Both the position numbers and the translations under genes were made by a program. Below, one piece after another: positions 1 through 46,918 of a stretch of DNA of 51,169 bases; positions within the stretch are counted from its first letter, which is position 1; every line of letters starts with the position of its first letter. This DNA comes from a virus (lineage: Duplodnaviria; Heunggongvirae; Uroviricota; Caudoviricetes): the IMG/VR virus record IMGVR_UViG_2541047830_000012; one strand, written 5' to 3'. The notes under the pieces were generated by a model. It was not told where the DNA came from. It saw only the letters and a program-made list of their open reading frames with translations, and made no database searches.

Positions 1-195
1 ATGCAATTACCTGTAAAGTTATTAATGAGCCTTATATCTCTGGTCAGCGTTATTGCACGTGCCGGGAAATATAAAAATTACATCCGGGATGAAATAAAAT
101 ACTGGCGATATACATCATACAAGGGGGGGGAATTTCCGGAAGGTTTCACTGATGAGAAATTTTCCAGCGCCATTTACAACGGAAGAATATTTACA

Positions 196-678: not shown

Positions 679-693
679 TTTAAGGAGTCTGTC

Positions 694-1104: not shown

Positions 1105-1246
1105 GGAGTAAACCATGCGTTTCTCTGCACATTATTAATATCAAAGGTAAATACAGCCCCAGCCATTGTTGCCGGAAAGCCGCTTAATGCGTGGCTCGCC
1201 AGTGAAAGGCTTCTCAGACAATAAACCTCATTCATTTCACCCGTCA

Positions 1247-1279
1247 GGCCGCGTCTTCTCCGGGAGACGTGGCTTTTTT
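1247..1279 (+). terminator. Putative rho-independent terminator
   Basis: GC-rich imperfect hairpin (GCGTCT...AGACG) followed by TTTTTTC. Confidence 0.4.
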
Positions 1280-1324
1280 CATTTATTACACCAGTAAATC
1301 TTAACCACCGATAAGGAGCAAATC

Positions 1325-2143: not shown

Positions 2144-2388
2144 TGCAGCATGTCCCTGAAGGCGTGATTCAGGCACCAGAATCACCCGACGCCCCGGAGG
2201 CGCTGCCGGGGTGTCGTTCCATTTCTGATGATGACCTGTGCGCCTGGTGTACCCGTCTGCTTTACCGTCCCGGAGAAATCAGTCTGTGCAGACTGAGTAC
2301 AGGCAATGGCATCTGGCCATCCGTCTGTGACCGGAACGGTTACGCGTACGGCTGTCCGGAATTTCAGCCGAATATCATTCATCCCTGA
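2143..2388 (+). CDS. Small island protein (YkfF/DUF905-like by position)
   Basis: ATG overlaps upstream stop (TGATG), suggesting translational coupling; 81 aa; sits before the antirestriction gene as ykfF does in CP4-6. Confidence 0.5.
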   Translation: MQHVPEGVIQAPESPDAPEALPGCRSISDDDLCAWCTRLLYRPGEISLCRLSTGNGIWPSVCDRNGYAYGCPEFQPNIIHP

Positions 2389-2481
2389 TATTACCGGGTC
2401 TCACGGTCAGTGATGAACGTGATGTTGCCAGCTCCCGACCTTTACTCCCTCTCATTTATTCACATTACAAGGATTTCATAC

Positions 2482-2955
2482 ATGAAAACATTGTCTCAGA
2501 ACACCACCTCTTCGGCCTGTGCACCGGAGACTGGCCTGCAACAACTGGTTGCCACCATAGTCCCTGATGAACAGCGCATCAGCTTCTGGCCGCAGCATTT
2601 TGGCCTCATTCCACAGTGGGTGACCCTGGAGCCCCGTGTCTTCGGCTGGATGGACCGTCTGTGCGAAAACTACTGCGGTGGTATCTGGAATCTGTACACC
2701 CTGAACAACGGCGGGGCATTTATGGCCCCTGAACCGGATGACTATGATGACGAAACATGGGTACTGTTCAATGCCATGAACGGTAACCGCGCTGAAATGA
2801 GCCCGGAAGCCGCCGGCATTGCCGCCTGTCTGATGACGTACAGTCATCACGCCTGCCGTACGGAGTGTTATGCCATGACGGTTCATTATTACCGTCTGCG
2901 GGATTACGCCCTGCAGCATCCGGAATGCAGCGCCATTATGCGCATTATTGACTGA
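2482..2955 (+). CDS. Antirestriction protein, KlcA/ArdB family (YfjX/YafX-like)
   Basis: 157-aa ORF; sequence and position typical of CP4-island antirestriction proteins; start chosen at internal ATG 2482. Confidence 0.8.
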   Translation: MKTLSQNTTSSACAPETGLQQLVATIVPDEQRISFWPQHFGLIPQWVTLEPRVFGWMDRLCENYCGGIWNLYTLNNGGAFMAPEPDDYDDETWVLFNAMNGNRAEMSPEAAGIAACLMTYSHHACRTECYAMTVHYYRLRDYALQHPECSAIMRIID

Positions 2956-2970
2956 AAGGGGGCCGGAACA

Positions 2971-3447
2971 ATGCAACAGATTTCCTTTCTGCCCGGAGAA
3001 ATGACAACCAGAGAGCGCAGCCTCATTCAGCGGGCCCTGAAAACCCTGGACCGCCATCTTCATGAACCCGGCGTGGCCTTCACCTCCACCCGTGCGGCAC
3101 GGGAATGGCTGATTCTGAACATGGCGGGACTGGAGCGTGAAGAATTCCGGGTGCTGTATCTGAATAACCAGAATCAGCTGATTGCCGGTGAAACCCTCTT
3201 CACCGGCACCATCAACCGCACGGAAGTCCATCCCCGGGAAGTGATTAAACGCGCCCTGTATCACAATGCCGCAGCCGTGGTGCTGGCGCACAATCACCCG
3301 TCCGGTGAAGTCACACCCAGTAAGGCAGACCGGCTTATCACCGAACGTCTGGTACAGGCACTGGGCCTGGTGGATATCCGGGTGCCGGACCATCTGATAG
3401 TCGGTGGCAGCCAGGTTTTCTCCTTTGCCGAACATGGTCTGCTTTAA
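2971..3447 (+). CDS. RadC-like JAB-domain protein (YeeS/YkfG/YfjY family)
   Basis: HNHPSGxxxPSxxD JAMM-like motif (AHNHPSGEVTPSKAD) visible in translation; GGGG RBS. Confidence 0.85.
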   Translation: MQQISFLPGEMTTRERSLIQRALKTLDRHLHEPGVAFTSTRAAREWLILNMAGLEREEFRVLYLNNQNQLIAGETLFTGTINRTEVHPREVIKRALYHNAAAVVLAHNHPSGEVTPSKADRLITERLVQALGLVDIRVPDHLIVGGSQVFSFAEHGLL

Positions 3448-3509
3448 CCCGTCACAACCACATCACACCTGTTTTCACTTTTATCTTCTGTCTTCAGAGG
3501 TATCCCACT

Positions 3510-3731
3510 ATGAAAATCATCACCCGTGGCGAAGCCATGCGTATTCACCGTCAGCATCCTGCATCCCGTCTTTTTCCGTTCTGTACCGGCAAATACCGCT
3601 GGCACGGCAGTGCTGAAGCGTATACCGGTCGTGAAGTGCAGGATATTCCCGGTGTGCTGGCCGTGTTTGCTGAACGCCGTAAGGACAGTTTTGGCCCGTA
3701 TGTCCGGCTGATGAGCGTCACTCTGAACTGA
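3510..3731 (+). CDS. DUF987 family small protein (YeeT/YkfH-like)
   Basis: 73-aa ORF in the conserved position between the radC-like gene and the toxin-antitoxin module. Confidence 0.7.
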   Translation: MKIITRGEAMRIHRQHPASRLFPFCTGKYRWHGSAEAYTGREVQDIPGVLAVFAERRKDSFGPYVRLMSVTLN

Positions 3732-3749
3732 GTCAGTAAGGGCATTCTG

Positions 3750-4394
3750 ATGAGCAGAATTATCACCACCACCGTGTATACACTGCATGAGCTATCCTCC
3801 ACCGCACAGGAAAAAGCCCGCGACTGGTACCGTCAGCATCATGCTGACAGCAACTGGTATGAAAACGTGTATGAGGACTTCAGGGCGGTCTGTGGCATTT
3901 TCGGAATTGACCTCCGCCAGCGCGTTTTCCGGCTCAGCAACGGCAGGTTTATGGAAGAGGCGTGCATCTGGTTCAGCGGATTCTGCAGCCAGGGGGACGG
4001 AGCCTGTTTTGAAGGACGCTGGCACTGGCAGCCAGCAACAGCCAGAAGGCTCCGGGAGTATGCCACACAGGACCATGAACTCCATCGTATCGCGGATGCC
4101 CTGCAGGCGGTGCAGAAACGTAACTTCTGGCAACTGCAGGCTGAAATCCACCACCGGGGACGTTACTGCCATCCGTACAGCATGGATATCACTGTTACCC
4201 GGAACAGTCCGACTGGTCAGGCTATGACAGCCGATGCGGAAGCCGCTGTCAGCGAAGCCCTGCGCGACCTGGCCTTCTGGTTGTACCGTCAGCTGGAAAA
4301 CGAGTACGACAGGCTGACCTCTGATGCCGCTGTGGATGAGGCCCTTCTCATCAACGAATACACCTTCACCGAAGCCGGTCTGCGCGCCGGCTGA
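3750..4394 (+). CDS. Hypothetical protein (214 aa) between DUF987 gene and antitoxin
   Basis: Tightly packed ORF with no recognisable motif; as far as I recall this position is empty in the K-12 CP4-44 layout. Confidence 0.55.
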   Translation: MSRIITTTVYTLHELSSTAQEKARDWYRQHHADSNWYENVYEDFRAVCGIFGIDLRQRVFRLSNGRFMEEACIWFSGFCSQGDGACFEGRWHWQPATARRLREYATQDHELHRIADALQAVQKRNFWQLQAEIHHRGRYCHPYSMDITVTRNSPTGQAMTADAEAAVSEALRDLAFWLYRQLENEYDRLTSDAAVDEALLINEYTFTEAGLRAG

Positions 4395-4409
4395 CCTGAG
4401 GACTTTATC

Positions 4410-4778
4410 GTGTCAGACAAACTCCATGAGACAAATTATCCCGACGACCATAACGACCGCCTCTGGTGGGGACTGCCCTGCACCGTGACGCCCTGTTTCG
4501 GGGCACGTCTGGTGCAGGAGGGTAACCGGTTGCATTACCTTGCCGACCGCGCCGGTATCAGAGGCCTGTTCAGCGATGCAGATGCGTACCACCTGGACCA
4601 GGCCTTTCCGCTGCTGATGAAACAACTGGAACTCATGCTCACCAGCGGTGAACTGAATCCCCGCCATCAGCATACCGTCACGCTGTATGCAAAAGGGCTG
4701 ACCTGCAAAGCCGATACCCTCAGCAGTTGTGGTTACGTTTATCTGGCTGTTTATCCGACGCCCGAAATGAAAAATTAA
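4410..4778 (+). CDS. cbeA: Type IV antitoxin CbeA (YeeU family)
   Basis: Translation (…DDHNDRLWWGLPCTVTPCFGARLVQEGNRLHYLADRAGIRGLFSDADAYHLDQAFPLLMKQLELMLTSGELNPRHQHTVTLYAKGLTCKADTLSSCGYVYLAVYPTPE) matches YeeU/CbeA as recalled; GTG start. Confidence 0.8.
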   Translation: MSDKLHETNYPDDHNDRLWWGLPCTVTPCFGARLVQEGNRLHYLADRAGIRGLFSDADAYHLDQAFPLLMKQLELMLTSGELNPRHQHTVTLYAKGLTCKADTLSSCGYVYLAVYPTPEMKN

Positions 4779-4866
4779 CTCTCCAGAATAGCCTTCTGCT
4801 ACGGCCTGGTGTTTTCACCACGCCACTTTTCCATTTTTATATCTGCATATCAGGAAAATCTTCAGT

Positions 4867-5241
4867 ATGAAAACATTACCTGTATTACCCGGGCAGGCGG
4901 CCAGTTCTCGCCCGTCTCCTGTTGAAATCTGGCAGATACTGCTGTCCCGACTGCTGGACCAGCACTATGGCCTCACACTGAATGACACACCGTTTGCCGA
5001 TGAACGTGTGATTGAGCAGCATATTGAGGCAGGCATTTCACTGTGTGATGCGGTGAACTTTCTCGTGGAAAAATACGCGCTGGTGCGTACCGACCAGCCG
5101 GGATTCAGCGCCTGTACCCGCTCTCAGTTAATAAACAGCATCGATATCCTCCGGGCTCGCAGGGCGACCGGCCTGATGACCAGCGACAATTACAGAACGG
5201 TAAATAACATTACCCTGGGTAAGTATCCGGAGGCGAAATGA
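4867..5241 (+). CDS. cbtA: Type IV toxin CbtA (YeeV family, cytoskeleton-binding toxin)
   Basis: 124-aa ORF directly downstream of cbeA; sequence typical of YeeV/YkfI/YpjF toxins. Confidence 0.8.
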   Translation: MKTLPVLPGQAASSRPSPVEIWQILLSRLLDQHYGLTLNDTPFADERVIEQHIEAGISLCDAVNFLVEKYALVRTDQPGFSACTRSQLINSIDILRARRATGLMTSDNYRTVNNITLGKYPEAK

Positions 5242-5432
5242 TGACACTGGAAGCCGACAGCGTTAACGTACAGGCGCTGGATATGGGGCACATTGTCGTT
5301 GACATTGATGGTGTTAATATCACTGAACTGATTAATAAGGCCGCTGAAAACGGTTATTCACTCCGCGTGGTGGATGACCGTGACTCTACCGAAACACCGG
5401 CAACTTATGCCAGCCCTCACCAGTTGCTGTAA
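5238..5432 (+). CDS. yeeW: YeeW-like small protein
   Basis: 64-aa ORF overlapping the cbtA stop (ATGA); position as yeeW in CP4-44. Confidence 0.55.
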   Translation: MMTLEADSVNVQALDMGHIVVDIDGVNITELINKAAENGYSLRVVDDRDSTETPATYASPHQLL

Positions 5433-5588
5433 GACAATGCAGTGATACAGGGTATAGTGCCATTAACCACAGAAACAGCACTGTTGTCCTGTATTAAGCA
5501 GGCAAGAGAAGATGTCCTTACCCTGCGCCATCTGCAGCTTCTGCACCAGAACCGGTGAATCTCACTCAACAGGCTTCATTTCCCCTGA

Positions 5589-5620
5589 CGCCAGCCTGAA
5601 TACAGCTGGCGTTTTCATTT
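5589..5620 (+). terminator. Rho-independent terminator after the toxin-antitoxin operon
   Basis: Hairpin CGCCAGC-ctgaataca-GCTGGCG followed by TTTTCATTT. Confidence 0.6.
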
Positions 5621-5872
5621 ATAAACAGAAAGGAAAACCGATAATAATGGAATGGACGCCCCGACCATGAAGCAACGGTAGGATATTACTGATAAACCTT
5701 CCAGTGGAGGTGCGTTATGGCCGTTTTAACGATTAGCATTGACCTGACAAAAAATGAATTCCAAATCCACGGTCTGGGTAGGAACAGAAAAATCTAAGCT
5801 CAGAAAACGGATTAAAGTAAGCGTCAACGGAGCACCGTATTGACGCTTATTTATTGGTGAGAACTACGTTCC

Positions 5873-6229
5873 ATGGCAGGAGTTCGTCAACACGGTTGGA
5901 GGGCCATTCCGGCAGTATGCTCAGAATATGGCGCAGATACGCTTCCGGATCGATACCGTTCAGACGGCAGGTGCCTGCTTTTCCGGCAACAAGCAGGAAT
6001 CTCAGCGCTGAAGCAGGAATTAGAGGTAAAAACGCCCTACCGGGCCATGAATCACCCGGTCATTGGAGTAGTAACCAAAGCAGATTTAGCCAGCATGGAA
6101 CAAATATCTTTGGTGACAAGTTGGTTACGGGAAGCTGGAGCGCACAACGTGTTAGTAACCAGTGCAGTTAATAACAATGGAGTTACAGAACTTTTTGCCT
6201 TGCTGCATACAGAAGAAGGCTGTTGTTAA
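5873..6229 (+). pseudogene. EutP/PduV-like GTPase fragment (yoeF-like pseudogene)
   Basis: Two overlapping ORFs in different frames (5854-6171, 5873-6229) suggest a frameshifted gene; C-terminal residues resemble EutP/PduV; position matches yoeF upstream of yeeX. Confidence 0.45.
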
Positions 6230-6329
6230 TTTCGATTGGTTCTCAGATGAGAATGATGACGGTGATACACAGATAAGAATCAATGAGCAATGAGGGTTGC
6301 CGGGCAACCCTCATTGAATAAAACGGGAA

Positions 6330-6659
6330 TTACTTCGCTTCGCCGTTTTTCATTTCGCCCATAGCTTTCAGCTTTTTGGAGATATCGCGGCGTTCTTTGG
6401 AGAGCTCGGCATTTTTGATGATGTAATCGTCAACGCGATCTTCATAGTCACCTTTCATGCTGGCGATGATGCCCTGGATTGCTTCAACGCTCATCCCTGG
6501 CTTGATGTAATCGCTCAGGTTGTCCAGCAACAGGACGCGCTTCTGGTTGTCACGGATCTTTTTCTCAACGTCCTGAATTTCACGTTGCAGTTTGTTCTTA
6601 CGACGGAACAGACGAACAAATTCCAGTACGTCCTGGAATGAAGGCTTGGTAGTTTCCAT
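6330..6659 (-). CDS. yeeX: YeeX (UPF0265/DUF496 protein)
   Basis: Translation from [18 protein letters not shown]… matches E. coli YeeX as recalled; start set at the internal Met. Confidence 0.85.
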
Positions 6660-6830
6660 TTTTATACCCCTGATAATGTGAGAGTCGGATTCGTTTAAGC
6701 AACCGCTATTCGTTAGGGCCAACATTACTCATAGCTGCCGCAGATGACAATGCTTTTATCCCTTTTCACTATCATACCCTTTATCCTTGCTGAATCGAAG
6801 CAGCAGCAAGATGATTCTGAAGTTCAGGAA

Positions 6831-7889
6831 TTATTTGCGCAAGGCCCGGCAAATCAGATTCGATAGCAACTCAAGCTGATGTGCCGTTTCCATGTTCAGC
6901 CACACATAACCATAGATTGGTGTTTCCAAGACTTTCAGGTCATGGTGGTTATCGAGCAACTGACGCAGCTCTTCCACAGCATCGTTCAATTTTTCCGTAT
7001 TGGCAAAAACCGGCTGCGGATTACCTTCGTACAGCGCATGAACAAGGCTCAGCAGTATTTGCTGCATCATGTGCTGGGTATCACGAAGTTTTTGCGCGTT
7101 CAATAACACGAAATGGCTGGGGCGCGTGGCCCAGTATGCATTGATTTGCAACTCCAGCATACAAACCAGATTGCGATTAATGGTCTGGATACCTTCATAT
7201 ATCGATTTGGGAATACGGGTTTCTTTGCTGGCGGGCGCAATCAGCCCACGCATTTTCACGGCATCGGTCAGGAGTTTTTGTAGATGGCTTTCCAGACGTG
7301 GGCGTTCGAGTAAGTTCGGTGAGAATGCAGATTGATAGACCCGATTATACTCGGTCAGACTTTTCGCCAGTTGAATGCGCCAGTGGATGAACGCCCGTTG
7401 TGGCCAGATACCGGTAAACAACATTGCCAGTAAAGAGCCGAGGATCACATCGCCGCTTCGCCATAACGCCGTATCAATTTCACCTGTCGGGGAACCCACA
7501 ACAATTGCCAGCGTCACCCCAATCAATAATCCTTGATACGGTTTCTTGCCCAGCGCCAGCCAACCGCAAAGAAACATCGCCGCCGCGCACCAGACTAACA
7601 TCAGCGGTAACGAAATTAACTCCAGTTGCAGAGCGATAAGACCTAAAATCGAACCCAACACCGTACCGCCAATACGTTCGAAGGCACGAGGGACAACGTT
7701 CCCCCAGAACGAGATTGGCCCCATAATCACCACCATGGTGACCAGCGGCCAGGTGCTTTCCGGGATAGTAAACAGGCGGATAATGAGAAAAGTGAGCAGG
7801 AATGCCAGCGCGACCCGAGTACCATGCACAATGCGGTAATGGCGGTATACCCGGATTTCAAACGGGCTTAATGACTTATCGGCACGCAC
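6831..7889 (-). CDS. yeeA: YeeA, putative FUSC-family inner-membrane transporter
   Basis: Hydrophobic 350-aa ORF matching YeeA as recalled; start uncertain (GTG 7889 or upstream ATG 7931). Confidence 0.8.
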   Translation of the reverse strand: MRADKSLSPFEIRVYRHYRIVHGTRVALAFLLTFLIIRLFTIPESTWPLVTMVVIMGPISFWGNVVPRAFERIGGTVLGSILGLIALQLELISLPLMLVWCAAAMFLCGWLALGKKPYQGLLIGVTLAIVVGSPTGEIDTALWRSGDVILGSLLAMLFTGIWPQRAFIHWRIQLAKSLTEYNRVYQSAFSPNLLERPRLESHLQKLLTDAVKMRGLIAPASKETRIPKSIYEGIQTINRNLVCMLELQINAYWATRPSHFVLLNAQKLRDTQHMMQQILLSLVHALYEGNPQPVFANTEKLNDAVEELRQLLDNHHDLKVLETPIYGYVWLNMETAHQLELLSNLICRALRK

Positions 7890-8086
7890 GCAGAAACTCC
7901 GTAATGAAGATGAAAAGCGCTCATAACACATCTGTCGGCCAGAAGGCGCGCCTCTGAGTTATCCGACGGACATACCGGGAACAGTGTAATTTCCCGGCAG
8001 GAGCGAAAAATTTGAAAGGCGCATCTTACTCTTTTCGCTTTCAAAAAAAGAGTGGTCTTCGCGTTAACACACCGCCCTGAGATGAA

Positions 8087-8560
8087 TTAGTGATGTTTTG
8101 GCTGCACCGCAACATACATTTCGATATCCCAGTACCCATCTTCCGCGCCATTGTTCAAGTAAACCTCGAAGCAGGGCTTTGGTAACATTTCATAAGCACT
8201 GTCCTGCAAGAGGCTATTAAAGAACTGATACCAGGGTTTAGCAAAATCATCACCGACTACACGAGCCACCGCCACCGCATACTGACCACCTGAAATTTCT
8301 GTCAGAATGACGCCCTCACTGTTTTCGGGGAGCGTAAAGTTATTCGGTACCGTCACGACGGTGTCGCAGCGTAATTTTTCGGCGGGTGTTTCATCTGGAT
8401 TGTCGTAATAGACAGCAACCCACTCCTTCGGCACAATATTTTTGCTATCTATCCACATCATCAACTGCTCAAAACCTTTCTTTACCATCTGCTCCCACGG
8501 GCCAACAAGATGGAAACCTGCAACGGTACGTTTATCTTCCTGCTTAATCTCGTAGTTCAT
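8087..8560 (-). CDS. sbmC: DNA gyrase inhibitor SbmC (GyrI)
   Basis: 157-aa [27 protein letters not shown]… matches SbmC as recalled; LexA box immediately upstream. Confidence 0.9.
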
Positions 8561-8576
8561 GACGCCTCCACTAACA

Positions 8577-8592
8577 CTGTTTTTATATACAG
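8577..8592. promoter_or_regulatory. LexA box (SOS operator) in the sbmC promoter
   Basis: CTGTTTTTATATACAG fits CTGT-N8-ACAG, 17 bp upstream of the sbmC start; sbmC is a known SOS gene. Confidence 0.7.
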
Positions 8593-8678
8593 TATAGTTG
8601 CAATATTAAAACCACAAGGAATGAGTGTTGATTATGCGAGCAGACTCGCACTCCTGCCAGTCTGCTGCAAAAGAAAGG

Positions 8679-9851
8679 TCAGGCCTTATGGTGGAAATAA
8701 TCACTCAGGCGGGAAAACATGCTGCCTTCCCCGACAGATTCCAGGGTAACCAGCGGCCAGTGCGCCACCTGTTTATCACGGTCGTAAAGTTCAATTTCCC
8801 CTACCCGCTGATGGGCGCTAATTGGCGCGGTGAGTTCTTTACCATCAAGGGTATATTTGGCTTTGATATGTGGAATTTCGGCTTTCGGTAGCACCATCCA
8901 GAACTCTTGTTCCGTTCCCAGGGCGATATTTTCTTTATCACCATACCAGATGCGTTCCGTACCGACCTTTTTCCCACGGTGCAAAATTTGCACCGTAGTA
9001 AAGTTTTGTTGCCCCCAACGCAGTAATTTTCTTGCCTCTTCCTCACGACCTTTTGCGCTGTCAGCCCCCATTACCACTGCAATGAGGCGACGCTGCCCGT
9101 CTACAGCCGAAGCAATAAGATTAAACCCGGCACCAGAAGTATGGCCCGTTTTCAGGCCGTCAACATTCATGGTTTTATCCCACAATAACCCGTTACGGTT
9201 TTGCTGGGTGATACCGTTCCAGGTGAGGCTTTTCTCACTGTACATATGATAAAACTCGGGCTCGCCGTGGATGATAGCGCGAGAAAGCACGGCTAAATCA
9301 TAAGCCGAGCTATGCTGGCCAGGTGCATCCAGACCATGCACTGTTTCAAAATGCGTATCCTTGAGATGCAGCTTCTCGGCATAGTTGTTCATCATTTCAA
9401 CAAACTGCCGTTGCCCACCGGCAATATAGTCAGCCAGAGCAACACAAGCGTCATTTCCGGAATCCACAATTAAACCACGGCTTAAATCACGTACCGATAC
9501 GCGATCGCCCTCTTTCAAAAACATCAGTGAAGAACCGACAAACACCGGATTATCTTTCGCCCACGCATCACGCCCCACGGTGACAATATCGTCTGGCGTA
9601 ATGCGATGACTATCGATAGCGCGATCCACGACATAGCCCGTCATCAGCTTTGTCAGGCTGGCGGGATTGCGCTGTTGATGCTCATTACCCGCGGTGAGAA
9701 TCTGACCGGTGGTGTAATCCATCAATACCCAGGACCCGGCATGAATCTCTGGAGGCTGAGGTGAAAAAGGAATGTTTTCCGCCGCAAAACCAGACGATAA
9801 ATTAAAAACGAACAAAGAAGCAGCAATAATAAGACGGCGTTTCAACAGCAA
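8679..9851 (-). CDS. dacD: D-alanyl-D-alanine carboxypeptidase DacD (PBP6b)
   Basis: 390-aa ORF with signal peptide and SxxK motif (ASLTK); synteny yeeX-yeeA-sbmC-dacD. Confidence 0.9.
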   Translation of the reverse strand: MLLKRRLIIAASLFVFNLSSGFAAENIPFSPQPPEIHAGSWVLMDYTTGQILTAGNEHQQRNPASLTKLMTGYVVDRAIDSHRITPDDIVTVGRDAWAKDNPVFVGSSLMFLKEGDRVSVRDLSRGLIVDSGNDACVALADYIAGGQRQFVEMMNNYAEKLHLKDTHFETVHGLDAPGQHSSAYDLAVLSRAIIHGEPEFYHMYSEKSLTWNGITQQNRNGLLWDKTMNVDGLKTGHTSGAGFNLIASAVDGQRRLIAVVMGADSAKGREEEARKLLRWGQQNFTTVQILHRGKKVGTERIWYGDKENIALGTEQEFWMVLPKAEIPHIKAKYTLDGKELTAPISAHQRVGEIELYDRDKQVAHWPLVTLESVGEGSMFSRLSDYFHHKA

Positions 9852-10638
9852 ACCCTCAGGTGTTTCAAATAGCTGTTCTTTTTACGGAAATACTTATGAA
9901 CTGGCTGGAATAAAGTGCAAGAAAATGTGACTACTATCTCATTTTTATCTGACATGATCTGTTGCCACTCGCTGCCAAATTGTCGCGCTAAAGCTGATTA
10001 GCACGGTGATATTTGATACTCTGGCAGACAGCAGAAATAACGGATTTAACCTAATGATGAATGACGGTAAGCAACAATCTACCTTTTTGTTTCACGATTA
10101 CACGCACCCCACCTGAGAACAGCCATGAGTAAGGGTTTCATGGTTTATGATTTTAGTTTGGTACACAATTTGGTACACATCGCAATTTTCACATCACCGG
10201 GCAGTCATAAAACTCACCATAACGCTCTTCGTTGATGATGTACGTGATCACCAAAAATATCGCATCCGGACTAGTTCCATCTTCATGCGTAGGTATCTGT
10301 TCATGCCTACCTGTCTGCAAATCCTAAAGATGAGATTTTAGAGTTTTGGGATATCTTTTTATCCTCAGTTCTCTATCCATTCTGCAAACCAGTAACGAAC
10401 CATCACCGTGTGATAGTGAGGCATCCGCTACGTTAAGCGCAGAGAAATGATGCAGTGGTGGGCGGATTGGATTGATGAAAAGGTGGTGTGACCCGCCTTA
10501 ACAACTATCGAATATCACAAAACCTTGCAATCCAGTGCAAAGCTTTGTGTGCAAGAATATTTTCTCACCAACATCATGACAACATTATTCTCTTAGTTAA
10601 TTACATCGAAAAATCATACATAACCATATTAATTAACA

Positions 10639-10684: not shown

Positions 10685-13063
10685 TCATATTTTATTTAAG
10701 TTATTCTTTTTTAATGTCATCTCTAGTTCTTCGATACGTCTTTCTATATTATCAATTCTCTCCCAGCATTGCTGAATTGATTTAACAATAGGTGGGATAA
10801 ACTCATCGTAACCGAGTGAGTAAACATCATCCCCACCATTTTTCAAGTGATGCTGTAGCCCACCGAACTCAACACCTAATTTTTCACACAGTTTCAATAC
10901 GTCCTGTGCAATAAACCAGTGATGGTATCGTTGACGTTTTTTACTGCCGTCAGGAGTTTTCTGCACTACTTCAAGATATTTTTCTTCGACATTCTCAATA
11001 GCTGATATAGTAATTCCATCAACATCTCGTTCTACTTTTTTTGGTACAATTCTTGTCTTTTCAATAACATCAATATAATCATCACGCATATCCCAGCGAC
11101 CATCGACAGGACGAAGCCCAAGGATAAATTCAATCCCCAGCAAAGTATCTCGGATATCTGTTTTATCACGCGCATCAGATCTGTTTTGCACAGTTCCATA
11201 TACATACGTCGTTGTGGAAGAATTGCCAAGCTGCACCTGATTACTTCCAGACACTCTTGCATCATTGCCAACAGTTGTTGTGTTGGTAAGTGATGATGTG
11301 CTTTCCCCTGATTGAGTTAATCTACCTGAATTATGTCCAATAGCCGTGTTTAATGCGCCGGTTGTATTTGTGACAAGAGAGCCAGACCCAATTGCAACGT
11401 TACTGCTTCCCGATGTTGTTCCTTTTAATGCCTGCTGTCCAACCGCAACATTATTATCACCCGTTGCTGCTATAAGTGCCATGTGACCAATAGAAACGGT
11501 AAATGAACCTAGCGTTTGAGTTTCACCGCATGCACCATAACCAATTACAACAACATTATCTGTAATTGTTGACTCGGTTGCCGCTCCAGCACCAATAACA
11601 ACGCTTTCATTCCCGGCAAGATTCTTGCGCATTGCGAACATTCCAATGCCAACATTATCATGCCCAGTCCCTGTACCTGCTGCCTCCGCAGCACCAAGAC
11701 AGTTTCCCGCTCTGTAGCCAACCATGGTGTTATTTGAACCAATAGAGAAGTCTCCGGCAAAAGAGCCTACGTATACACTATTAGACTGTGAGTAATCTCC
11801 AGGATTTCCATTCGCCCGATATCCTACTGCAACTGTATAAATAGTATCTGGAGCCTCAGCCATGGCCTCAAAGCCAACTCCAACGTTATATCTACCGCCC
11901 TTAACTTTTTCTCCTGCACCAAGTCCGAAGAATGAGTTATAGCTCCCGGTTGTTAGCCACTCGCCAGCAACAGAACCTACAGCAGTGTTTCCTGTTCCAG
12001 TACATCGATACAAAGTCAGGAAGCCAACTCCGGTATTATTATTTCCTGAAATATTACTCATCAATGATTTTGACCCAATGGCAGTATTGTTAACACCATC
12101 GGTCAGATCCTGTAACGCTCGCGGGCCAAATGCTGTATTATCGTAACCCTTTGGCGCTGTTGTTGGATCTGGTAACTCCGGGGTTAGTTTTTCACCACCG
12201 CCACCATTGGCACAAAGATTGTAAGATCGAATAAATTCAGCCACTGGCCCAAGTTTTAAATAACCATTGGCAATATTAATTCTGACACTTACATTAACTG
12301 AGCTACCAGGAGCTTCTATTGTCCTGTCATCAACCCAGGTAAAACTCTGTGGTATCCCGTCATAAGTTAATGTCACATCTCCTTTATCATTATAATTATA
12401 GAACAATGTATAACGCTCATTTATAGATTCAGAACCTGATGATCCTCCTCTCCTCCACCACTCTGCATTATCAAAAATAAGTAATCCTGGACCATAATAT
12501 TTTCCCTTCTGACCCAAGATCATAGGAGTCGATAATCGCCACCTTCCCTCTGGAACATATACATCGATCCCAGTTCTTTCTGCGTCTTTAAACGATTCAT
12601 CACATAATAAAACACCACCTTCAACAGCACCAAATCCACGAACATCACCATTATCTCTCCATCGAGCCATTTGCAACTCAGGATACTTCTTAGCGCCATC
12701 AATGTCTTCTAATTGGTCCCGCAGCTGATCAGGATCATACTTCAGTACATTAGGAAAATAGAACTGCTGAGCACCGTAAGCATCATATACAGCCATAGAA
12801 TGGCCTTGCACAGTTACGAACTTGGCAATCTGTCCGTTATATACAGGGTAACCAGCAGCGTTAAGGATGATTGGTTGTGAAACAGGAATGTGAGAACCAT
12901 CTTCACTCTCTACATAAACCTGAATCTGGTTTTCAGGATTTACCGGGTCAGTGTCAATTTTACCGATATAAATTTTGCCATTAGCTACGGCTTTAAAAGA
13001 GCGAGCCATAGTGAAGAGTTGCGATGGCATCCCAATTACAACATTTGGGGTTATATTAGGCAT
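10685..13063 (-). CDS. Tailspike / tail fibre: P22 gp9-type head-binding N-terminus, Gly-rich repeat body, C-terminal S74-type chaperone domain
   Basis: N-terminus ([43 protein letters not shown]…) matches the P22 tailspike head-binding domain as recalled; the middle has repeated GxxNTAxGxxA motifs; C-terminal …[23 protein letters not shown]… resembles the self-cleaving chaperone of endosialidase-type fibres; start at ATG 13063 (AGGA 8 nt upstream), alternatives 13072 or 13156. Confidence 0.8.
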
Positions 13064-13408
13064 ATTAGTCATCCTGTTTGAAAACTTAGAAATTGAATAA
13101 AAAGGAATGACTGTAGACAAAGATGCAAGTGTTTTGAAAAATAATCTTCTATCCATTTTAAATCATGCAACACAAACAAAACGATTATTTTACAACGTGC
13201 ACGAATCTTGATCAACAGGCATATATTTTAATTGCTGAATACGTCACTTAAAAATGACAAGTACTACTTTTATTCCTATCGTCCATGATTTTAATTTTCA
13301 AATATTATTAAATAACAATTCCTATTTATAATATCTGTCATTTAATTTGCTCCAGATACAAGTAATCGCTGCAGCATGACTGCAGTGATACATAATCAAT
13401 CATACAAC

Positions 13409-13487: not shown

Positions 13488-13739
13488 ATGGGAAGAGATG
13501 ACCCGCAATTTAATCTGCGGCTACCTTACGAATTAAAGGAAAAACTAAAACAGCGAGCCAAATCCAATGGCCGCTCTCTTAATTCAGAATTAGTTCAGAT
13601 AGTGACTGATGCTGTATCAAAGCCATCCAAAATTTCAGGCTATCGAGACGATGCGGAACGCATCGCTGATGAGCAGTCCGAACTTGTTAAGAAGATGGTG
13701 TTTGATACGCTGAAGGATTTGTACAAAAAAACCACCTGA
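13488..13739 (+). CDS. mnt: Mnt repressor (ribbon-helix-helix, P22 immI-type)
   Basis: Translation MGRDDPQFNLRLPYELKEKLKQRAKSNGRSLNSELVQIVTDAVSKPSKISGYRDDAERIADEQSELVKKMVFDTLKDLYKKTT closely matches P22 Mnt as recalled. Confidence 0.85.
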   Translation: MGRDDPQFNLRLPYELKEKLKQRAKSNGRSLNSELVQIVTDAVSKPSKISGYRDDAERIADEQSELVKKMVFDTLKDLYKKTT

Positions 13740-13838: not shown

Positions 13839-14084
13839 ATGGCGAAAAAACCAGGTGAAAACACAGGAAAAACGGCGGAATATACCAAGAGGTTGGCCCA
13901 CGCGGCGGTAAGAAAGACAATTTTGCCACCGTCAAGGACAACGAAAGGCTTCCGCCAACAACAAAGCCAGGTCATGGCTGGGTATTGGATAAGCGAACTC
14001 CAGACAGCAAAAAGTAATACTCAAGCCGGGTCACTCCGGCTTTTTGATATGTCGCTCGCAGAACTCAACAAGCCTGCTCATTAA
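13839..14084 (+). CDS. Possible small basic protein convergent with the HExxH gene
   Basis: GAGGTA RBS 5 nt upstream of ATG; 81 aa; overlaps the 3' end of the opposite-strand gene, so it may not be real. Confidence 0.3.
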   Translation: MAKKPGENTGKTAEYTKRLAHAAVRKTILPPSRTTKGFRQQQSQVMAGYWISELQTAKSNTQAGSLRLFDMSLAELNKPAH

Positions 14085-14396
14085 GTAGCAGTAAGTCTCG
14101 TTGGCTCTTCCTGGTTCAACATCAACGCCGACCCTTGAGCAGATATCGAATGCCATGTGAGCGCACTCATGGGCAATAGTAGATAGTTTGCCATTGAACA
14201 CGCCTATCACATGCAAAACACCATTCTCGCTGCTCATTGTATGAGACGCTCCGTTGGCGTCCGAGTCATGCACGTCAACGCCAAGTTTTTGATGCAGGCG
14301 TTGCCATTCTGGAAAGTCTCTACAAAACACAATTGTACCGCTCTCAAAGAGCGGAACGAGCATCTTTGGTACGTTTCCAATGTTAACTTTTTTCAT
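14031..14396 (-). CDS. Small HExxH-motif protein (putative Zn-metallopeptidase-like)
   Basis: 121-aa ORF with AGGA RBS; HECAH motif (…STIAHECAHMAFDI…); sits between the ejection genes and mnt, where P22 has sieA (recalled). Confidence 0.6.
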   Translation of the reverse strand: MKKVNIGNVPKMLVPLFESGTIVFCRDFPEWQRLHQKLGVDVHDSDANGASHTMSSENGVLHVIGVFNGKLSTIAHECAHMAFDICSRVGVDVEPGRANETYCYLMSRLVEFCERHIKKPE

Positions 14397-14567
14397 GGTA
14401 TCCTGCTCAAAACTAAGGAGGTTGGAGGTTGGTGTGCTTGAATGGTTTCTGTTGGCTGCATTAGTCGTTTCTGGTTGGGTGTATGAGTATCGAATGCACT
14501 CTTATTAGACGTCAACTAGTTTTGCCGACTCGCGCCAACTATACTGGCCGCACCCTTCAGTGCGACA

Positions 14568-15323
14568 TCAAGTCGCGCTTGTTACTGCCTTCGCTGTCTT
14601 TTTCCTGTAGCTTTCACCTTTCAGTTCGAACATATATCCGTGATGGATCAGCCGGTCTGCCGCCGCCACCGCCATAGTCTCATCCACGAAGATGCTGCCC
14701 CACATGCTGAACGGATGGTTACTGGTTATCACCAGGCTCCCACGTTCATAGCGATGCGCTATTAACTCGAACAGTACTCCCGTTTCGGCGCTGTCGCGTT
14801 TGACATAGCCAAGATCATCCACCACTATCACCCGGTAGCGATCCAGTTTCAGTAGCAGCTCATTCAGTTTCAACTGCGCTCTGGCTTTACGTAGTTCCTG
14901 CAACAACTCTCCTGCGCTGTAGAACCGGGCCCGGTAGCCCTGGCCTACTACGCCATCCACGATCGCTGCCGCCAGATGGCTTTTCCCCAACCCGCTGGCT
15001 CCGAACAGCAGAACGTTTTCTCCTGCATCAACCCAGTCTGTCGTTTCACAGAGTTGCCGGAACTGAGCTCCATTCAGTTCCGGCACCTGACTGAAGTCGT
15101 ATTCGCTTAGCGTTTTGGCAACTGGCAACCGGGCCTCCTTTTTATAACGACGCAGTTTTTCACTCTCGCGCCACAGGAGTTCTTCATTGCATAGCGTCAG
15201 AAGATAGCGCGATGGTGTCCAGCCTTCTGCCAGTGCTCGTTTTTCCAGAGCGTGCCATTCAGCTCCAACTCGTGTCAGGCGTAGTTTACGCAGGCTGCGT
15301 TCAAGGTGATGGATATTGCTCAC
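14568..15323 (-). CDS. istB: IS21-family helper ATPase IstB
   Basis: Walker A GASGLGKSHLA and Walker B VIVVDDLG; typical IstB length. Confidence 0.9.
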   Translation of the reverse strand: MSNIHHLERSLRKLRLTRVGAEWHALEKRALAEGWTPSRYLLTLCNEELLWRESEKLRRYKKEARLPVAKTLSEYDFSQVPELNGAQFRQLCETTDWVDAGENVLLFGASGLGKSHLAAAIVDGVVGQGYRARFYSAGELLQELRKARAQLKLNELLLKLDRYRVIVVDDLGYVKRDSAETGVLFELIAHRYERGSLVITSNHPFSMWGSIFVDETMAVAAADRLIHHGYMFELKGESYRKKTAKAVTSAT

Positions 15324-16819
15324 TGCGAACCTCCCTTGCCACGCAGTAGTTGCTCATAACTGCTCAGGTTATGCTGTTTCACATTGACTACCGGCAACGC
15401 CTTTTCCTTTATACCCAGGAAGCGCATCAGCCGGTGCAGATCCACGTTTCCCGGGGTATTCAGCATCTGCTCCATACCTTTTGCCACGACTGAGATATCG
15501 TCGTATCCTGCAGCCAGTTTCAGAGCATGTACCATCAGCCTGCCTGCCATGTCGGGTTCCAGATGATTACATAAGCGACGCCACAGCCTCCGCCATTCAT
15601 CGTCTGGCAGGATGTCATTTCTCAGCGTTGCATGGCAGAACGCACCGGGCTTTTTTGCCAGACTGTCGATCACATGTCGGAAGTCGATACGACGGGCCCG
15701 CGTCTTCCCTTTTTCTGGTCTGACACGTGGGCAGCTCATGACCTCGCTGCTGCCAACGTAACAGCTCAGACGATCGTCCCATAACCGGACCCGTAACAGT
15801 TGACCTACAAGCCGGGAAGGTACGCTGTAGACGACGTGCTTCACATTGATGGTACTGCTGCGGCTAACCCTCACAGTCAGCTCATCATAGTCAGCACTGC
15901 GACGAAGCGGCAGCGGTTTCAGATGAAGACGTTCTTCCTTGACCAGATCCTGATTGTTACGGTTGTGCCGCATAACCTGCTGAGTGATGAAGGCCTGATA
16001 TTCTTCTATGGTGCTGAAGTCGTTACTGCCCCGCAGTATCAGCGCCTGACAGATACGCCTTTTCAGATGTCCGTGGGCACTTTCAACCGAGCCATTTTCG
16101 TGGCCCCGACCGGCATTATTGTGTACGCCCTGCATTCCGTAGTGCTGACAGAGAGCAGCATAACGCTCAGTCAGCTCGCGGCGTCCATCTTCGCCCTGTT
16201 GTTTCCATGCTGCCCTCAGGCTGTCCGTTTTATGTTCTACCGGCACTCCGCCCAGTTGTCCGAGGGCTTCCTGCAGACCTTCAGCCAGAGCAGAGAAGCT
16301 CTCACCACCCAGCACAACCCGCATCCAGCTCCAGTGGCTCCATTCCAGACGGAAGTGATACAACTTATGCGCCAACAACTTACCGGCGATGGTGACAACT
16401 ACACCTTTCAGTTCAGTAAAGTCCGACAGACCTCGCAGACCGGGCTGATGTCGCTGGCGGAACATGACCTCCTGCTCTGCACCATACTGTAGCTTCCATT
16501 CGCAGACCCGCCGTTGCATTGTTCTTCGAAGGCTGTTGGGGTACTGGCCGGGATATTTATCCTGTAGCATCTCCAGCAGAGTTGTTGGTGTCAGAGCCGG
16601 CCTCTCTTTCAACAGAGGAACAAGCATGCTGTCCCACACAGCTTCCAGAGGATCTTTGCGTGTGCGCCAGTGCCGAACACTGTTTTTTGCCCACTCTCCT
16701 TTTTCGATCCGACGACCAGAACGGACTGAGATACCAGCCTTCATGGCCGAGATATGCTGAGTTATACCTTTCTTACGCTGAGTCATATAGTAACTGACCT
16801 GAGAAGTATTGAGCGTCAC
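15320..16819 (-). CDS. istA: IS21-family transposase IstA
   Basis: 499-aa ORF with N-terminal HTH and integrase-like core, directly upstream of and overlapping istB. Confidence 0.85.
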   Translation of the reverse strand: MTLNTSQVSYYMTQRKKGITQHISAMKAGISVRSGRRIEKGEWAKNSVRHWRTRKDPLEAVWDSMLVPLLKERPALTPTTLLEMLQDKYPGQYPNSLRRTMQRRVCEWKLQYGAEQEVMFRQRHQPGLRGLSDFTELKGVVVTIAGKLLAHKLYHFRLEWSHWSWMRVVLGGESFSALAEGLQEALGQLGGVPVEHKTDSLRAAWKQQGEDGRRELTERYAALCQHYGMQGVHNNAGRGHENGSVESAHGHLKRRICQALILRGSNDFSTIEEYQAFITQQVMRHNRNNQDLVKEERLHLKPLPLRRSADYDELTVRVSRSSTINVKHVVYSVPSRLVGQLLRVRLWDDRLSCYVGSSEVMSCPRVRPEKGKTRARRIDFRHVIDSLAKKPGAFCHATLRNDILPDDEWRRLWRRLCNHLEPDMAGRLMVHALKLAAGYDDISVVAKGMEQMLNTPGNVDLHRLMRFLGIKEKALPVVNVKQHNLSSYEQLLRGKGGSQ

Positions 16820-16927
16820 GCCATTTCCTGTTGGATCATGTAAATGACACTCAGGTTACAAAACCGGCCAGAATAATCGGCGCCAGGCGGACTGAGTTAT
16901 TGTCGTCTCATACACTCTCTAACAAAA

Positions 16928-17178
16928 AAAATAGGAATTCTAGAAAACGAATATTGGGCTCTCAAATCCTCACTGGAACGTGAGCAAGGAGACTTAAAAA
17001 TCTATCTGTCTAGCATTGAGCGTTCTATAGAGAGCCTAGAGGATAAAGTTAATCGTATAAAGAATGAGGATATTCATGATATTAAGGACGATATATCCTT
17101 CTTAAAATCTTGGTTGAAAAATGTTGGTAAAATTGCCACATCAACACGAGATAAGCTCAATCCATCCATGGATGATTA
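16928..17178 (+). pseudogene. C-terminal fragment of a phage gene interrupted by the IS21-family element
   Basis: ORF without a start reads KIGILENEYWALKSSLEREQGDLKIYLSSIERSIESLEDKVNRIKNEDIHDIKDDISFLKSWLKNVGKIATSTRDKLNPSMDD*; a candidate N-terminal part (RBS TAAGGAGG, GTG 14435, VLEWFLLAALVVSGW…) lies on the same strand just before the IS. Confidence 0.4.
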
Positions 17179-17179
17179 A

Positions 17180-19348
17180 TTACTCCTGTGCTATTCCGCT
17201 TAGCGATGCCACAATTCCAGCCCTTGCTAAACGCTGGAAATCTTCGTTTCCTAGTGCATCGCGTATTGCTTTTACGGCGGCCTTATTTGCCATAAATCTG
17301 CGTTCAGCCGCCGCTAATGCGCCATCACTTGCCCCAACCTTAACTGCCTTTGTTGCCTCTTGAACAGCCTTTTCAATAGCGTAACGACCGCTTCTGGTTG
17401 CGGATAATTTCGCTATCGATCCTTTTGCTATTGCATCAATTGCTCCACCTGCAGCGCCACCCACTATTGCTCCAATAACACCACCTCCAGAGAACCCTGC
17501 GATAGCGCCAGCGGTTGGAAAAGCGCCAGACAATACGCTCTCTAAAACTGGATGAAGGCCCTTCTCAAGAGTGCTAATGGCTGGCATAGAGCGCCCTGTC
17601 TGTTCAACATATCGAAGTGGCTTTGTTGCTGCTCGTGCAAGTTCTCCGTATGAACTTGTAATCCTGCCAAGTTCTGGAGAATATCGACTAATTGCCTTCA
17701 CGTTTTGTGGGGTAAGAATAGTCGCGATATGCTTAATTCCAGCCCCTTCAGACTTACCTCCGCGCATCCCTTGCGATACCGTATCTTGCAATATTGATGC
17801 AATTGCTGGCGCGCGTTCAGACTCAGGTAGGGCGCTTATTATTTTATGAAACTGACCTGTTCCACTTTTTGCTGAGCCCTGTAACGCCTTAGAGCCATTA
17901 GTTACCAACTGATCAGTTGCAAGGTCTCTACCAAACGCTGCTTCAGCCTGTTCTTGTGCTGTAAATCTTGCCTTTGACAGATCATTAGCTTTTTGCCAGT
18001 CATCAAGAAAACCGCCATTTTGAGCCATTATGCGCATATCTTCCGTTGCTGCATCACGAAGCTCAGCCATGCGCCTTGCCGTATTTGCCTCACCAGACCT
18101 TATATACTTCTGCTCAGCGTCAGCAAGTTTACTTCGCCATGCCTTCATGGCATCAAACGTGATTCCATTTTTACCAGTTTTAGCATAAGCAGATGCGAAT
18201 TGTTTCATCTCAGGAGTTAGCGGCATGCCAGCCAAAATATCACCCTGAATTGTAGCGTTCAGGTTTAACATTCTGGCCTTTGCGTCAGGCATCGTGGAGC
18301 GGACGCTATCCCATGCGGCCTTTTCTGAATTTTTCATTTTATCAATACTTGCCAAAACCCTTTGTTTTATGGCTGCACTTTTTTCTGATGCAGTTCCTGC
18401 TTCAGCCCCAAACTCATCCAATGCTGAGTTAAATTTCGACTCTATTTCACTGAATGCTTTGGTGTGTGCATCCTGTGTAATTCCGGGCTTTGACGCCAGA
18501 ATCCCCTCCGCCTGAGCAAGACCACGACTACCTGATCTCATGCCAGGAGTTAATGCGTTGATATCTATTCCAGCGGTATCTGCTGCTTTTGCTATTTCGT
18601 CTGACACGTTAGCTGACTGTCTGGCAATAATCTCTCTTCCTGTACCAGACTTTGCCATTTTCGAAACATCAGCAGCGGAATTTATTGCCCCGCCACCAAG
18701 AACTTGAGGTGATTTAGAGGTTAAGAGCCTTCCAGCCCCAGAAAGTATCCCCTGAGCACCAATATTGATACCACCGTTAATGGCAGCATTTTGTGCAAAG
18801 TCGCCCTCCTGATTTGCAGCATCAGCAAGAGAACCTGCAATCATGTTTCCTGCGGAACCGATATCTCCAGCGAGCTTTGCTGGCGCTCCAGCAGCTTTTG
18901 CCGCTGTGCCAATTGGCAGGAGATACCCACCAATTGTTTCACCGGCTTGCGCGTAAGGGTCTGTCGGTCGATCGACAGGGCGATAAACATCATCCAAAAC
19001 CTTTGGGCCACCAAGCCCCTGGCTGATTGCATTAATCAGACTTGCGCCACCCTGTAACACGTCAAATGGTATGTTTACCAGACCACGACCAGCCTGTTCT
19101 GCAATTTGCCCTGCACTTTGACCACCAGTGAGCCAATCGCCAGCTTGTTGCATCAATGATGGTTCTTCTTTCTGCTGCTGAGGCGGAGGGTATGCTGCAT
19201 AAAACTGATCTCTTGCTTCAGCCCATTTGTCACCAGCCTTAGGGGCAACAACCTCATCAAAATATTGCGCTTGAGCCTGTGCTTTCTGTTCTTCAGTTAA
19301 CGCCTGATACTGTGGAGAAGCGATAACGTCTTTCCATGCTTTAGCCAT
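17180..19348 (-). CDS. DNA ejection/injection protein (P22 gp16-like)
   Basis: 722-aa Ala/Gly-rich ORF in the gp16 position of the P22-type order 26-14-7-20-16. Confidence 0.65.
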
Positions 19349-46747: not shown

Positions 46748-46918
46748 ATGTCACTTGCAACCACAGTGAAGGAGAGCAAGTTACAGAGACGCATGTACAC
46801 GCAGCAGGCGTTAATGTATCGCCAGAAGGGAGATCGTGAAGGTGTTCGCGTATTTTTAAATGCGGCAAAGACTGAAGTATTAAATCAGCGTTATTTCCTT
46901 GGGCCATGTCCATTCTGA
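46748..46918 (+). CDS. Possible small protein upstream of erf (P22 arf position)
   Basis: 56-aa ORF ending 10 bp before erf; competes with the overlapping track ORF 46654-46839; call by position only. Confidence 0.3.
   Translation: MSLATTVKESKLQRRMYTQQALMYRQKGDREGVRVFLNAAKTEVLNQRYFLGPCPF

Follow-up and report, generated by a model that had tools for sequence, protein, structure and literature searches.

A complete copy of the insertion sequence ISEc10 has, very probably, transposed once into hkcB, an accessory gene of a HK620/P22-like prophage, and created a null allele. The prophage occupies sbcB in a close E. coli relative of strain ZH063 and was found in the stretch of DNA analyzed here (51,169 nucleotides, hereafter the window). 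According to this account, a single transposition would have placed the element at codon 23/24 of hkcB with duplication of a 6-bp target (CACTCT); a stub of 24 residues and a 3' remnant that cannot be translated would be all that is left of the gene, and HkcB would be lost. ISEc10, hkcB and the carriage of insertion sequences by P22-like phages are all already known; for annotation, the value lies in ends of the element and a target duplication that are now exact (Table 1).

Table 1. Features of the hkcB::ISEc10 region and its neighbors (positions in the window) and the basis of each assignment
Feature	Position	Strand	Basis
mnt homologue, Arc/Mnt repressor	13488-13739	+	PF03869, PF11423
hkcC homologue, 121 aa, conserved HExxH	14031-14396	-	HK620 annotation, phrog_1365, homologue alignment
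Putative promoter, homologous to P22 PsieA	14366-14396	+	aligned 'P sieA' of the P22-pbi record
Ribosome-binding site TAAGGAGGTT	14414-14430	+	alignment with HK620 and P22
hkcB 5' fragment: GTG + codons 1-23, hydrophobic anchor	14434-14502	+	aligns with P22 sieA and HK620 hkcB starts
Target duplication CACTCT, left copy; hkcB codons His22-Ser23	14497-14502		read from sequence
Terminal inverted repeat, istB-proximal end	14503-14550		inverted repeat I1
istB, AAA+ helper ATPase, 251 aa, intact	14568-15323	-	profiles
istA, IS21-family transposase, 499 aa, intact	15320-16819	-	profiles and length
Terminal inverted repeat, istA-proximal end	16865-16912		inverted repeat I1
Target duplication CACTCT, right copy	16913-16918		read from sequence and empty site
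hkcB 3' fragment: codons 24-109 + stop, no usable start	16919-17179	+	identical to 3' part of WP_001576809.1 (ZH063)
Gene 16 homologue, HK620-type DNA ejection protein	17180-19348	-	ZH063-like and HK620 annotations

The element occupies 14503-16912 on the minus strand (2410 bp), is complete, and is identifiable by sequence comparison as ISEc10, an already named insertion sequence of the IS21 family. It is 100.0% identical over this interval to several independent copies, whose genes are labeled 'IS21-like element ISEc10 family' in RefSeq, and the alignments of many further copies end at precisely 14503 and 16912. IstA matched NCBIfam NF033546 (223 bits, cutoff 160) and contains the Mu-transposase C-terminal domain (Pfam PF22483), and its length equals that of RefSeq WP_000174402.1, a product of copies with identical DNA; IstB matched PF01695 (209 bits) and NF038214 (267 bits, cutoff 200). 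The istB gene lies directly downstream of istA, the two overlapping by 4 nt (GTGA) at the end of istA, and the 48-nt terminal inverted repeats are imperfect (71% complementary). An IstA, an IstB immediately downstream, imperfect inverted repeats and a short target duplication, by which the IS21 family is recognized, were thus all found in this element. The copy is apparently active. An istA-istB element between the ejection genes and the Mnt locus had been described in the first-pass annotation, and this placement holds, the intact element being located between ejection gene 16 and mnt, where it splits a small plus-strand gene.

In the IS21 family, the target duplication measures 4-8 bp and the ends usually read 5'-TG...CA-3', which is typical but not defining. 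Nine independent ISEc10 copies from different contexts start TATTAGACG and finish CGTCTCATA, with a length of 2409-2410 bp; all nine read 5'-TATTAG...CTCATA-3' rather than the typical form, and the 'CA' beyond the right end in the window is part of the target duplication. Chromosomal and plasmid-borne copies in E. coli share these ends and the istA-istB layout but occupy other insertion sites, with target duplications of 5-7 bp (mostly 6 bp); the copy in a DUF4942 gene (ST131 strains; THO-003) is 99.8% identical to that in the window. Alignment to other copies, the check proposed earlier for finding the exact ends and the target duplication, therefore led to 14503-16912 and to CACTCT (6 bp).

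By their sequence, the two orphan ORF fragments flanking the element are a single pseudogene, hkcB. The 5' fragment runs into the element and meets a TAG stop at 14506-14508, and the 3' fragment, which closes with TAA at 17177-17179, offers no start codon in frame upstream of TTG at 17114; a 24-aa stub and a remnant that cannot be translated together amount to a null allele. In-silico removal of 14503-16918 (the element and one duplicate) brings the fragments into one frame of 109 aa and yields a 785-bp junction that is 785/785 identical in 16 complete E. coli genomes with an intact empty site, including ZH063 and SaT040, which means that nothing was deleted at insertion. The rebuilt gene shares 96.3% nucleotide identity with hkcB of phage HK620, and its product matched phrog_5962 over positions 2-109 of 109 (E = 3.9e-61). 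The same gene, of 109 aa, convergent with gene 16 and divergent from hkcC, is found at the same position as hkcB in HK620 and as gene 14 in Salmonella phage epsilon34 (PMC2629481); the window has the same neighbors in the same orientations, but unlike in these two phages its hkcB is split by the element. The hkcB::ISEc10 junction was absent from 5,426 complete E. coli genomes and from two contig collections (genome and metagenome), and a 42-aa ORF spanning the junction has no recorded match. No observation speaks against the insertion as such.

Much of what the first-pass annotation had proposed for this gene is borne out. Removal of the element in silico followed by a homolog search, its suggested check, recovered an intact gene that is 100% identical in the 16 complete genomes and 96% identical at the nucleotide level to HK620 hkcB, and the idea that the element interrupts a small gene with a hydrophobic N-terminus and a coiled-coil-like body agrees with the restored reading frame. 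It had also correctly recognized, on the plus strand, an ORF in which a GTG start is preceded by a strong ribosome-binding site (TAAGGAGG) and followed by a hydrophobic N-terminus, although GTG is at 14434 and not 14435; similarly, a start-less helical C-terminal ORF does follow the element, but extends over 16919-17179 instead of 16928-17178.

Besides the loss of HkcB, the insertion may have effects in cis. The istA-istB genes have the direction of the prophage late operon, and late-operon transcripts would now pass through them in the sense direction before reaching hkcC and the tailspike gene; in addition, an extra 2.4 kb would shorten the terminal redundancy of a headful-packaging phage without necessarily abolishing it. 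It appears unlikely, however, that such cis action (polarity on hkcC and the tailspike gene, or a genome too long for a headful) is the main consequence and that the prophage is functionally crippled by it. The element is indeed located between gene 16 and gene 9, where PLate transcripts pass (PMC2629481), the prophage has grown from 40,037 to 42,453 bp compared with a P22 headful of 43,400 +/- 750 bp (PMC8402733), and phage Sf6 becomes faster after loss of IS911, but Sf6 is also viable with IS911 (PMC5630979). With a headful like that of P22, the terminal redundancy would still amount to about 0.95 kb, an estimate made with the P22 value, which may differ from the headful of the HK620/P22-like prophage considered here. 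With regard to polarity, a terminator scan of the minus strand of the element returned only one weak site (16642-16628). Moreover, Q-antiterminated transcription of lambdoid late operons is expected to pass terminators, and a Q-family gene is present.

Comparison with ZH063 shows a prophage that is otherwise intact, so that the presence of ISEc10 in hkcB reflects one ordinary transposition rather than decay of the prophage. Once the element is removed, the window (48.7 kb) differs from ZH063 by 2 SNPs, one of which is in the prophage and synonymous while the other is outside it. In ZH063, the prophage is complete in its genes for lysogeny, replication and lysis and for the head, ejection and the tailspike; it also encodes an integrase, and RefSeq marks none of its genes as a pseudogene. 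These data do not support the earlier statement that the prophage is accumulating lesions, and they make it quite improbable that the prophage is a defective, non-inducible remnant in which the insertion is but one decay event among several, even though insertion sequences are common in decaying prophages and truncated or frameshifted hkcB variants are present in other genomes. The integrase and the right attachment site (attR) lie beyond the window, and their state is deduced from ZH063.

The gene that was struck also argues against decay, as hkcB is part of the 'ant moron', a non-essential region that corresponds here to the variable stretch from ejection gene 16 to the tailspike gene and that has been described as a site of rapid genetic flux crossed by PLate transcripts toward the tailspike gene (PMC2629481). 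Hence, the insertion alone says little about inducibility and is no reason to score the prophage as degraded. Another P22-like prophage has an IS3-type element in its ant moron (PMC2629481); like this element and the IS911 of Sf6, ISEc10 is located in a non-essential region of a headful-packaging P22-like genome, whereas it differs from both in belonging to the IS21 family rather than the IS3 type and in disrupting a defined gene.

Two further readings are hardly credible. That the flanking fragments come from different genes or from none, with the element in intergenic or unrelated DNA, could draw on the fact that the exact insertion occurs in no complete genome of the E. coli collection, so that there is no before and after within one strain, but the fragments are neither unrelated nor out of frame: intact homologs span both, the 109-aa ORF is annotated by PGAP in ZH063 (WP_001576809.1) and as hkcB in HK620 (NP_112088.1), and the family is conserved to 45-49% identity even in Salmonella and Klebsiella, strongly so in the C-terminal third. 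There is just as little room for the reading that TGTATGAG/CTCATACA repeats at 14480 and 16914 form the ends of the element without any duplication of the target, a situation that would call for an IS-associated deletion or rearrangement in place of a simple insertion; these repeats do make an 8-nt perfect inverted match (14480-14487 and 16907-16914), and IS21-family ends often begin with TG, but 14480-14502 is uninterrupted in the empty-site genomes and in HK620 hkcB, other copies have no similarity to the left of 14503, and the excision described above restores a perfect junction without deletion.

The TGTATGAG termini of the first-pass annotation have thus to be replaced by those that the nine copies share and at which the matches to many further copies stop (14503 and 16912). 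The left TGTATGAG is hkcB coding DNA, and in the right CTCATACA, six bases are the end of the element and two are the beginning of the target duplication; the match is unremarkable, since TGTATGAG occurs 4 times in the window with 1.4 occurrences expected. Ends set at TGTATGAG would also leave the flanks out of frame. Two related ideas were rejected. CACTC adjoins the element both in the window and in the DUF4942-gene copy of THO-003, but it is neither part of the element nor a target motif, as seven other sites have unrelated duplications. End-like sequences that might have attracted the element (TATGAGACG at 14240 and TGTATGAG at 14480) have counts within the range of shuffled sequences.

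The gene inactivated by ISEc10 occupies the exact spot of the superinfection-exclusion gene of P22, and its earlier description as lying in the position of P22 sieA is true in a strict sense: locus, upstream sequence, ribosome-binding site and GTG start are the same for both genes. Positions 14300-14406 are identical among the window, P22 and HK620, and the putative PsieA homologue, assigned from the P22-pbi annotation and sequence identity, sits within the 5' part of hkcC, which is encoded on the other strand. Compared with HK620 and P22, the alleles of the window and of ZH063 have a 7-bp tandem duplication (GGAGGTT x2) in the ribosome-binding-site region. Both sieA and hkcB run counter to the late operon, and a membrane association is predicted for each product. 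In P22, sieA is depicted among the regions expressed from the prophage, and its product is an inner-membrane superinfection-exclusion protein (PMC10883804); by analogy, hkcB, which follows sequence identical to the sieA promoter and has the same ribosome-binding site and GTG start, is probably expressed in the lysogen as well.

HkcB is predicted to consist of an N-terminal hydrophobic anchor and a helix of about 85 residues. Its AlphaFold model is a single helix (2-103, pLDDT 87), and in the sequence, hydrophobic residues 1-17 are followed by K/R and a heptad pattern. The helix probably forms a coiled coil, and the K/R residues after the anchor suggest that it is on the cytoplasmic side. With about 16-17 residues, the hydrophobic segment is short, and membrane insertion is a prediction. 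No meaningful match to HkcB was obtained in Pfam, PADLOC or NCBIfam, its PHROGs family (phrog_5962) gives no function, and a profile search of the PDB returned only generic coiled-coil matches.

Despite the shared locus, the two proteins are unrelated. SieA has 164 aa, several transmembrane segments and a conserved FxRYPxEAxxFNK motif, whereas HkcB combines a single hydrophobic segment with a single long helix; HkcB lacks the motif, and BLASTP between the two found no alignment at E <= 100, which places HkcB, on sequence grounds, outside SieA types A-C. From the position of the gene, we infer that HkcB could have a role analogous to that of sieA, in exclusion or defence. A more specific proposal, which is tentative and considered doubtful, is that HkcB, with a structure unrelated to that of SieA, represents a second 'cassette' of the sieA locus, in the form of a prophage-expressed, membrane-anchored coiled coil that excludes or defends against superinfecting phages. 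HK620-type ejection proteins partly escape SieA (PMC10883804), and such a second cassette may act on other ejection proteins than SieA does. If this were true, the ISEc10 allele would be a natural knockout of an exclusion or defence function, nearly isogenic with the ZH063 prophage.

Independently of that proposal, the strain of the window and ZH063-type strains make up a natural near-isogenic pair (hkcB::ISEc10 and hkcB+), which could be used to study both the function of HkcB and the effect of 2.4 kb of extra DNA on a headful-packaging phage. In addition, ISEc10 has been reported upstream of afa in S103EC, where the insertion is given as 2,530 bp (PMC8764528), compared with 2409-2410 bp for the copy in the window and those in nine other contexts.

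An IS21-family element is present between the ejection gene and the Mnt-type repressor gene, as the first-pass annotation had proposed, because its transposase and IstB ORFs match the family models, both above cutoff. The IstB ORF starts 4 nt ahead of the end of the transposase ORF, and the two overlap. More than 1000 related copies were detected by megablast among 5,426 complete E. coli genomes, and RefSeq names their genes "IS21-like element ISEc10 family"; both ISEc10 and hkcB, the 109-codon accessory gene that it splits, are already catalogued.

Coordinates of the features at the ISEc10 insertion in hkcB
Feature	Position	Strand	Remarks
Arc/Mnt-type repressor gene	13488-13739	+	bounds the IS region on one side
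Direct repeat CACTCT (target duplication)	14497-14502 and 16913-16918		read in the window
IstB helper ATPase ORF, 251 aa	14568-15323	-	NF038214, 267 bits (cutoff 200); PF01695, 209 bits
Transposase ORF (istA), 499 aa	15320-16819	-	NF033546, 223 bits (cutoff 160)
A8 homopolymer within hkcB	16924-16931		codons 25-28
Ejection-protein gene (gene 16)	17180-19348	-	bounds the IS region on the other side

The TGTATGAG termini initially assigned to the element were wrong. In an alignment with the THO-003 copy, similarity starts further in than TGTATGAG at 14480-14487, and a query trimmed to the element matched exactly 14503-16912 in many independent chromosomal and plasmid copies, several of them with 100.0% identity. 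Nine copies extracted from different genomic contexts were all 2409-2410 bp long, with TATTAGACG at the 5' end and CGTCTCATA at the 3' end; the flanking direct repeats were unrelated between sites and 5-7 bp in length, in most cases 6 bp, and the element ends form an imperfect inverted repeat (48 nt, 71% complementary). The left TGTATGAG is target DNA outside the element, while the right CTCATACA is made up of six IS bases and two from the duplication. With four occurrences of TGTATGAG in the window versus 1.4 expected by chance, its match at the termini is without special meaning. The ISEc10 copy upstream of afa in ST131 was published as 2,530 bp (PMC8764528), whereas the length here and in the nine other contexts is 2409-2410 bp.

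In-silico excision of the IS and one CACTCT copy, joining 14502 to 16919, yielded an in-frame ORF of 330 nt (GTG 14434 to TAA 17177-17179, 109 aa). A 785-bp reconstruction at this joint matched 16 complete E. coli genomes with 100% identity over its entire length, among them SaT040, CU568-3 (O25:H4), and ZH063, a strain with a near-identical prophage; its identity to coliphage HK620 was 96.3%. The ORF is annotated in ZH063 as WP_001576809.1 and in HK620 as hkcB, with gene 16 and the divergent gene hkcC on its flanks exactly as in the window. Because the rebuilt ORF is in frame and is a single intact gene in both references, the two fragments belong to one interrupted gene, neither out of frame nor derived from different genes. 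Its product matched phrog_5962 over the full length (E = 3.9e-61), a family without known function, and a homologue, likewise of unknown function, was described for epsilon34 in the same 'ant moron', the variable accessory region between gene 16 and the tailspike gene (PMC2629481). In the interrupted allele, translation from the GTG covers the first 23 native residues, adds a single Tyr, and ends at TAG 14506-14508. The 3' fragment is closed upstream by an in-frame stop at 16874, and none of ATG, GTG, and TTG occurs in its frame until 17114; the helical part of the protein therefore cannot be produced, which makes this a null allele.

With a query spanning both junctions, this insertion was found in none of the 5,426 complete E. 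coli genomes (best coverage 87%), and the junction was also absent from species-representative genome contigs and metagenome contigs. Strains with the empty site may bear ISEc10 elsewhere, such as USVAST219 on a plasmid. The insertion looks like a recent, strain-specific transposition.

The suggestion that the gene occupies the position of P22 sieA was borne out even more strongly than proposed. Window, P22, and HK620 are identical over 14300-14406 in a three-way alignment, a stretch that includes, at 14366-14396, the aligned promoter annotated as "P sieA" just upstream of sieA in the P22-pbi record, and all three have the AAGGAGGTTGGTGTG ribosome-binding site and the GTG start in common, beyond which the sequences diverge into sieA in P22 and hkcB in HK620 and the window. 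The two genes thus appear to be alternatives served by a common set of expression signals. The proteins themselves are unrelated: BLASTP gave no alignment between HkcB and SieA, and SieA types A-C are defined by several membrane segments together with the FxRYPxEAxxFNK motif (PMC10883804), both of which HkcB lacks. Relative to HK620 and P22, the hkcB ribosome-binding region carries a 7-bp tandem duplication (GGAGGTT GGAGGTT, 14417-14430) that creates two Shine-Dalgarno-like motifs and is shared by the genomes identical to ZH063.

HkcB belongs to a small family with members in E. coli, Salmonella, and Klebsiella, in which identity falls to 45-49%, the N-terminus is variable yet hydrophobic, and the C-terminal third is strongly conserved. 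The AlphaFold2 model is a single continuous helix (residues 2-103, mean pLDDT 87); residues 1-17 are hydrophobic, followed by R20, K26, and K27, and a heptad pattern runs through the remainder, which by the positive-inside rule points to a predicted N-out/C-in anchor whose coiled coil would be cytoplasmic. Profile searches against Pfam, PADLOC, NCBIfam, and PDB returned only generic coiled-coil matches. Several database variants are defective (P0019 and P0022-P0025 truncated or chimeric, P0026 frameshifted exactly in the A8 tract); judging from these sequences, hkcB is evidently lost fairly often, and the A8 tract may be a slippage hotspot. A sigma-70-like consensus match (TTGAGA-17-TAGAAT, 10/12) also lies inside hkcB at 16937-16965 on the minus strand; it now faces the istA end of the IS, and in the empty site would lie ~125-150 bp upstream of hkcC.

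Besides the probable loss of HkcB, the insertion may affect transcription and packaging. The IS genes and the late operon run in the same direction, and in P22 the PLate transcripts cross the ant-moron region on the way to the tailspike gene (PMC2629481). Here, late transcripts would cross istA-istB in the sense direction ahead of hkcC and gene 9 (tailspike), polarity should be mild owing to Q-type antitermination, and the sieA-type promoter would now fire antisense into istB-istA. The prophage is 40,037 bp in ZH063 (core to core) and 42,453 bp with the IS. A P22 head takes up 43,400 +/- 750 bp of DNA (PMC8402733); if the headful is P22-like, terminal redundancy would fall from ~3.4 kb to ~0.95 kb, a drop that could make circularisation less efficient but not impossible. 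Sf6 carrying IS911 is viable and gained speed on deletion of the IS (PMC5630979).

The first-pass annotation was correct about an IS-interrupted gene, an ordinary event, but over-reached in concluding that the prophage is accumulating lesions. Local BLAST of the entire window against the ZH063 region gave two collinear blocks with the IS as the only gap, and base-by-base comparison revealed two differences in 48.7 kb: G/A at 1979, outside the prophage (Thr219Ala in a DUF932 gene, the only non-synonymous difference from ZH063), and T/G at 46846, synonymous in a small prophage ORF. The ZH063 prophage has uninterrupted genes for tailspike, ejection proteins, head and portal, terminase, lysis, Q, and the nin region, together with replication genes, cro, LexA-type repressor, N, erf, and others, plus integrase, and none of its genes is flagged as a pseudogene. 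No evidence of decay emerged from these comparisons. Because of this collinearity, the two substitutions, and the lack of pseudogene flags, the IS appears to be the sole structural lesion, and the gene that it hits belongs to the ant moron, a non-essential and fast-changing region (PMC2629481).

The prophage is integrated in sbcB, the exonuclease I gene, at its 5' end, with the core TTTCACGATTAC at 10090, where the old sbcB N-terminal coding stub remains; at the right junction (ZH063 NZ_CP014522.1, ~2257834), with the same core TTTCACGATTAC, the phage supplies a similar replacement N-terminus, and this junction and the integrase lie beyond the window end. The first ~10 kb (1-10000) are outside the prophage and comprise a CP4-44-like island (DUF932, antirestriction, yeeT, and cbeA/cbtA toxin-antitoxin genes), then tmaR, yeeA, sbmC, and dacD. 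The longest tailspike ORF (10685-13156, minus strand) encodes 823 aa, and its start precedes the conserved P22-type head-binding N-terminus by 29 codons; RefSeq gives a shorter product of 792 aa for ZH063, and the tailspike C-terminus looks like a candidate self-cleaving chaperone-type domain.
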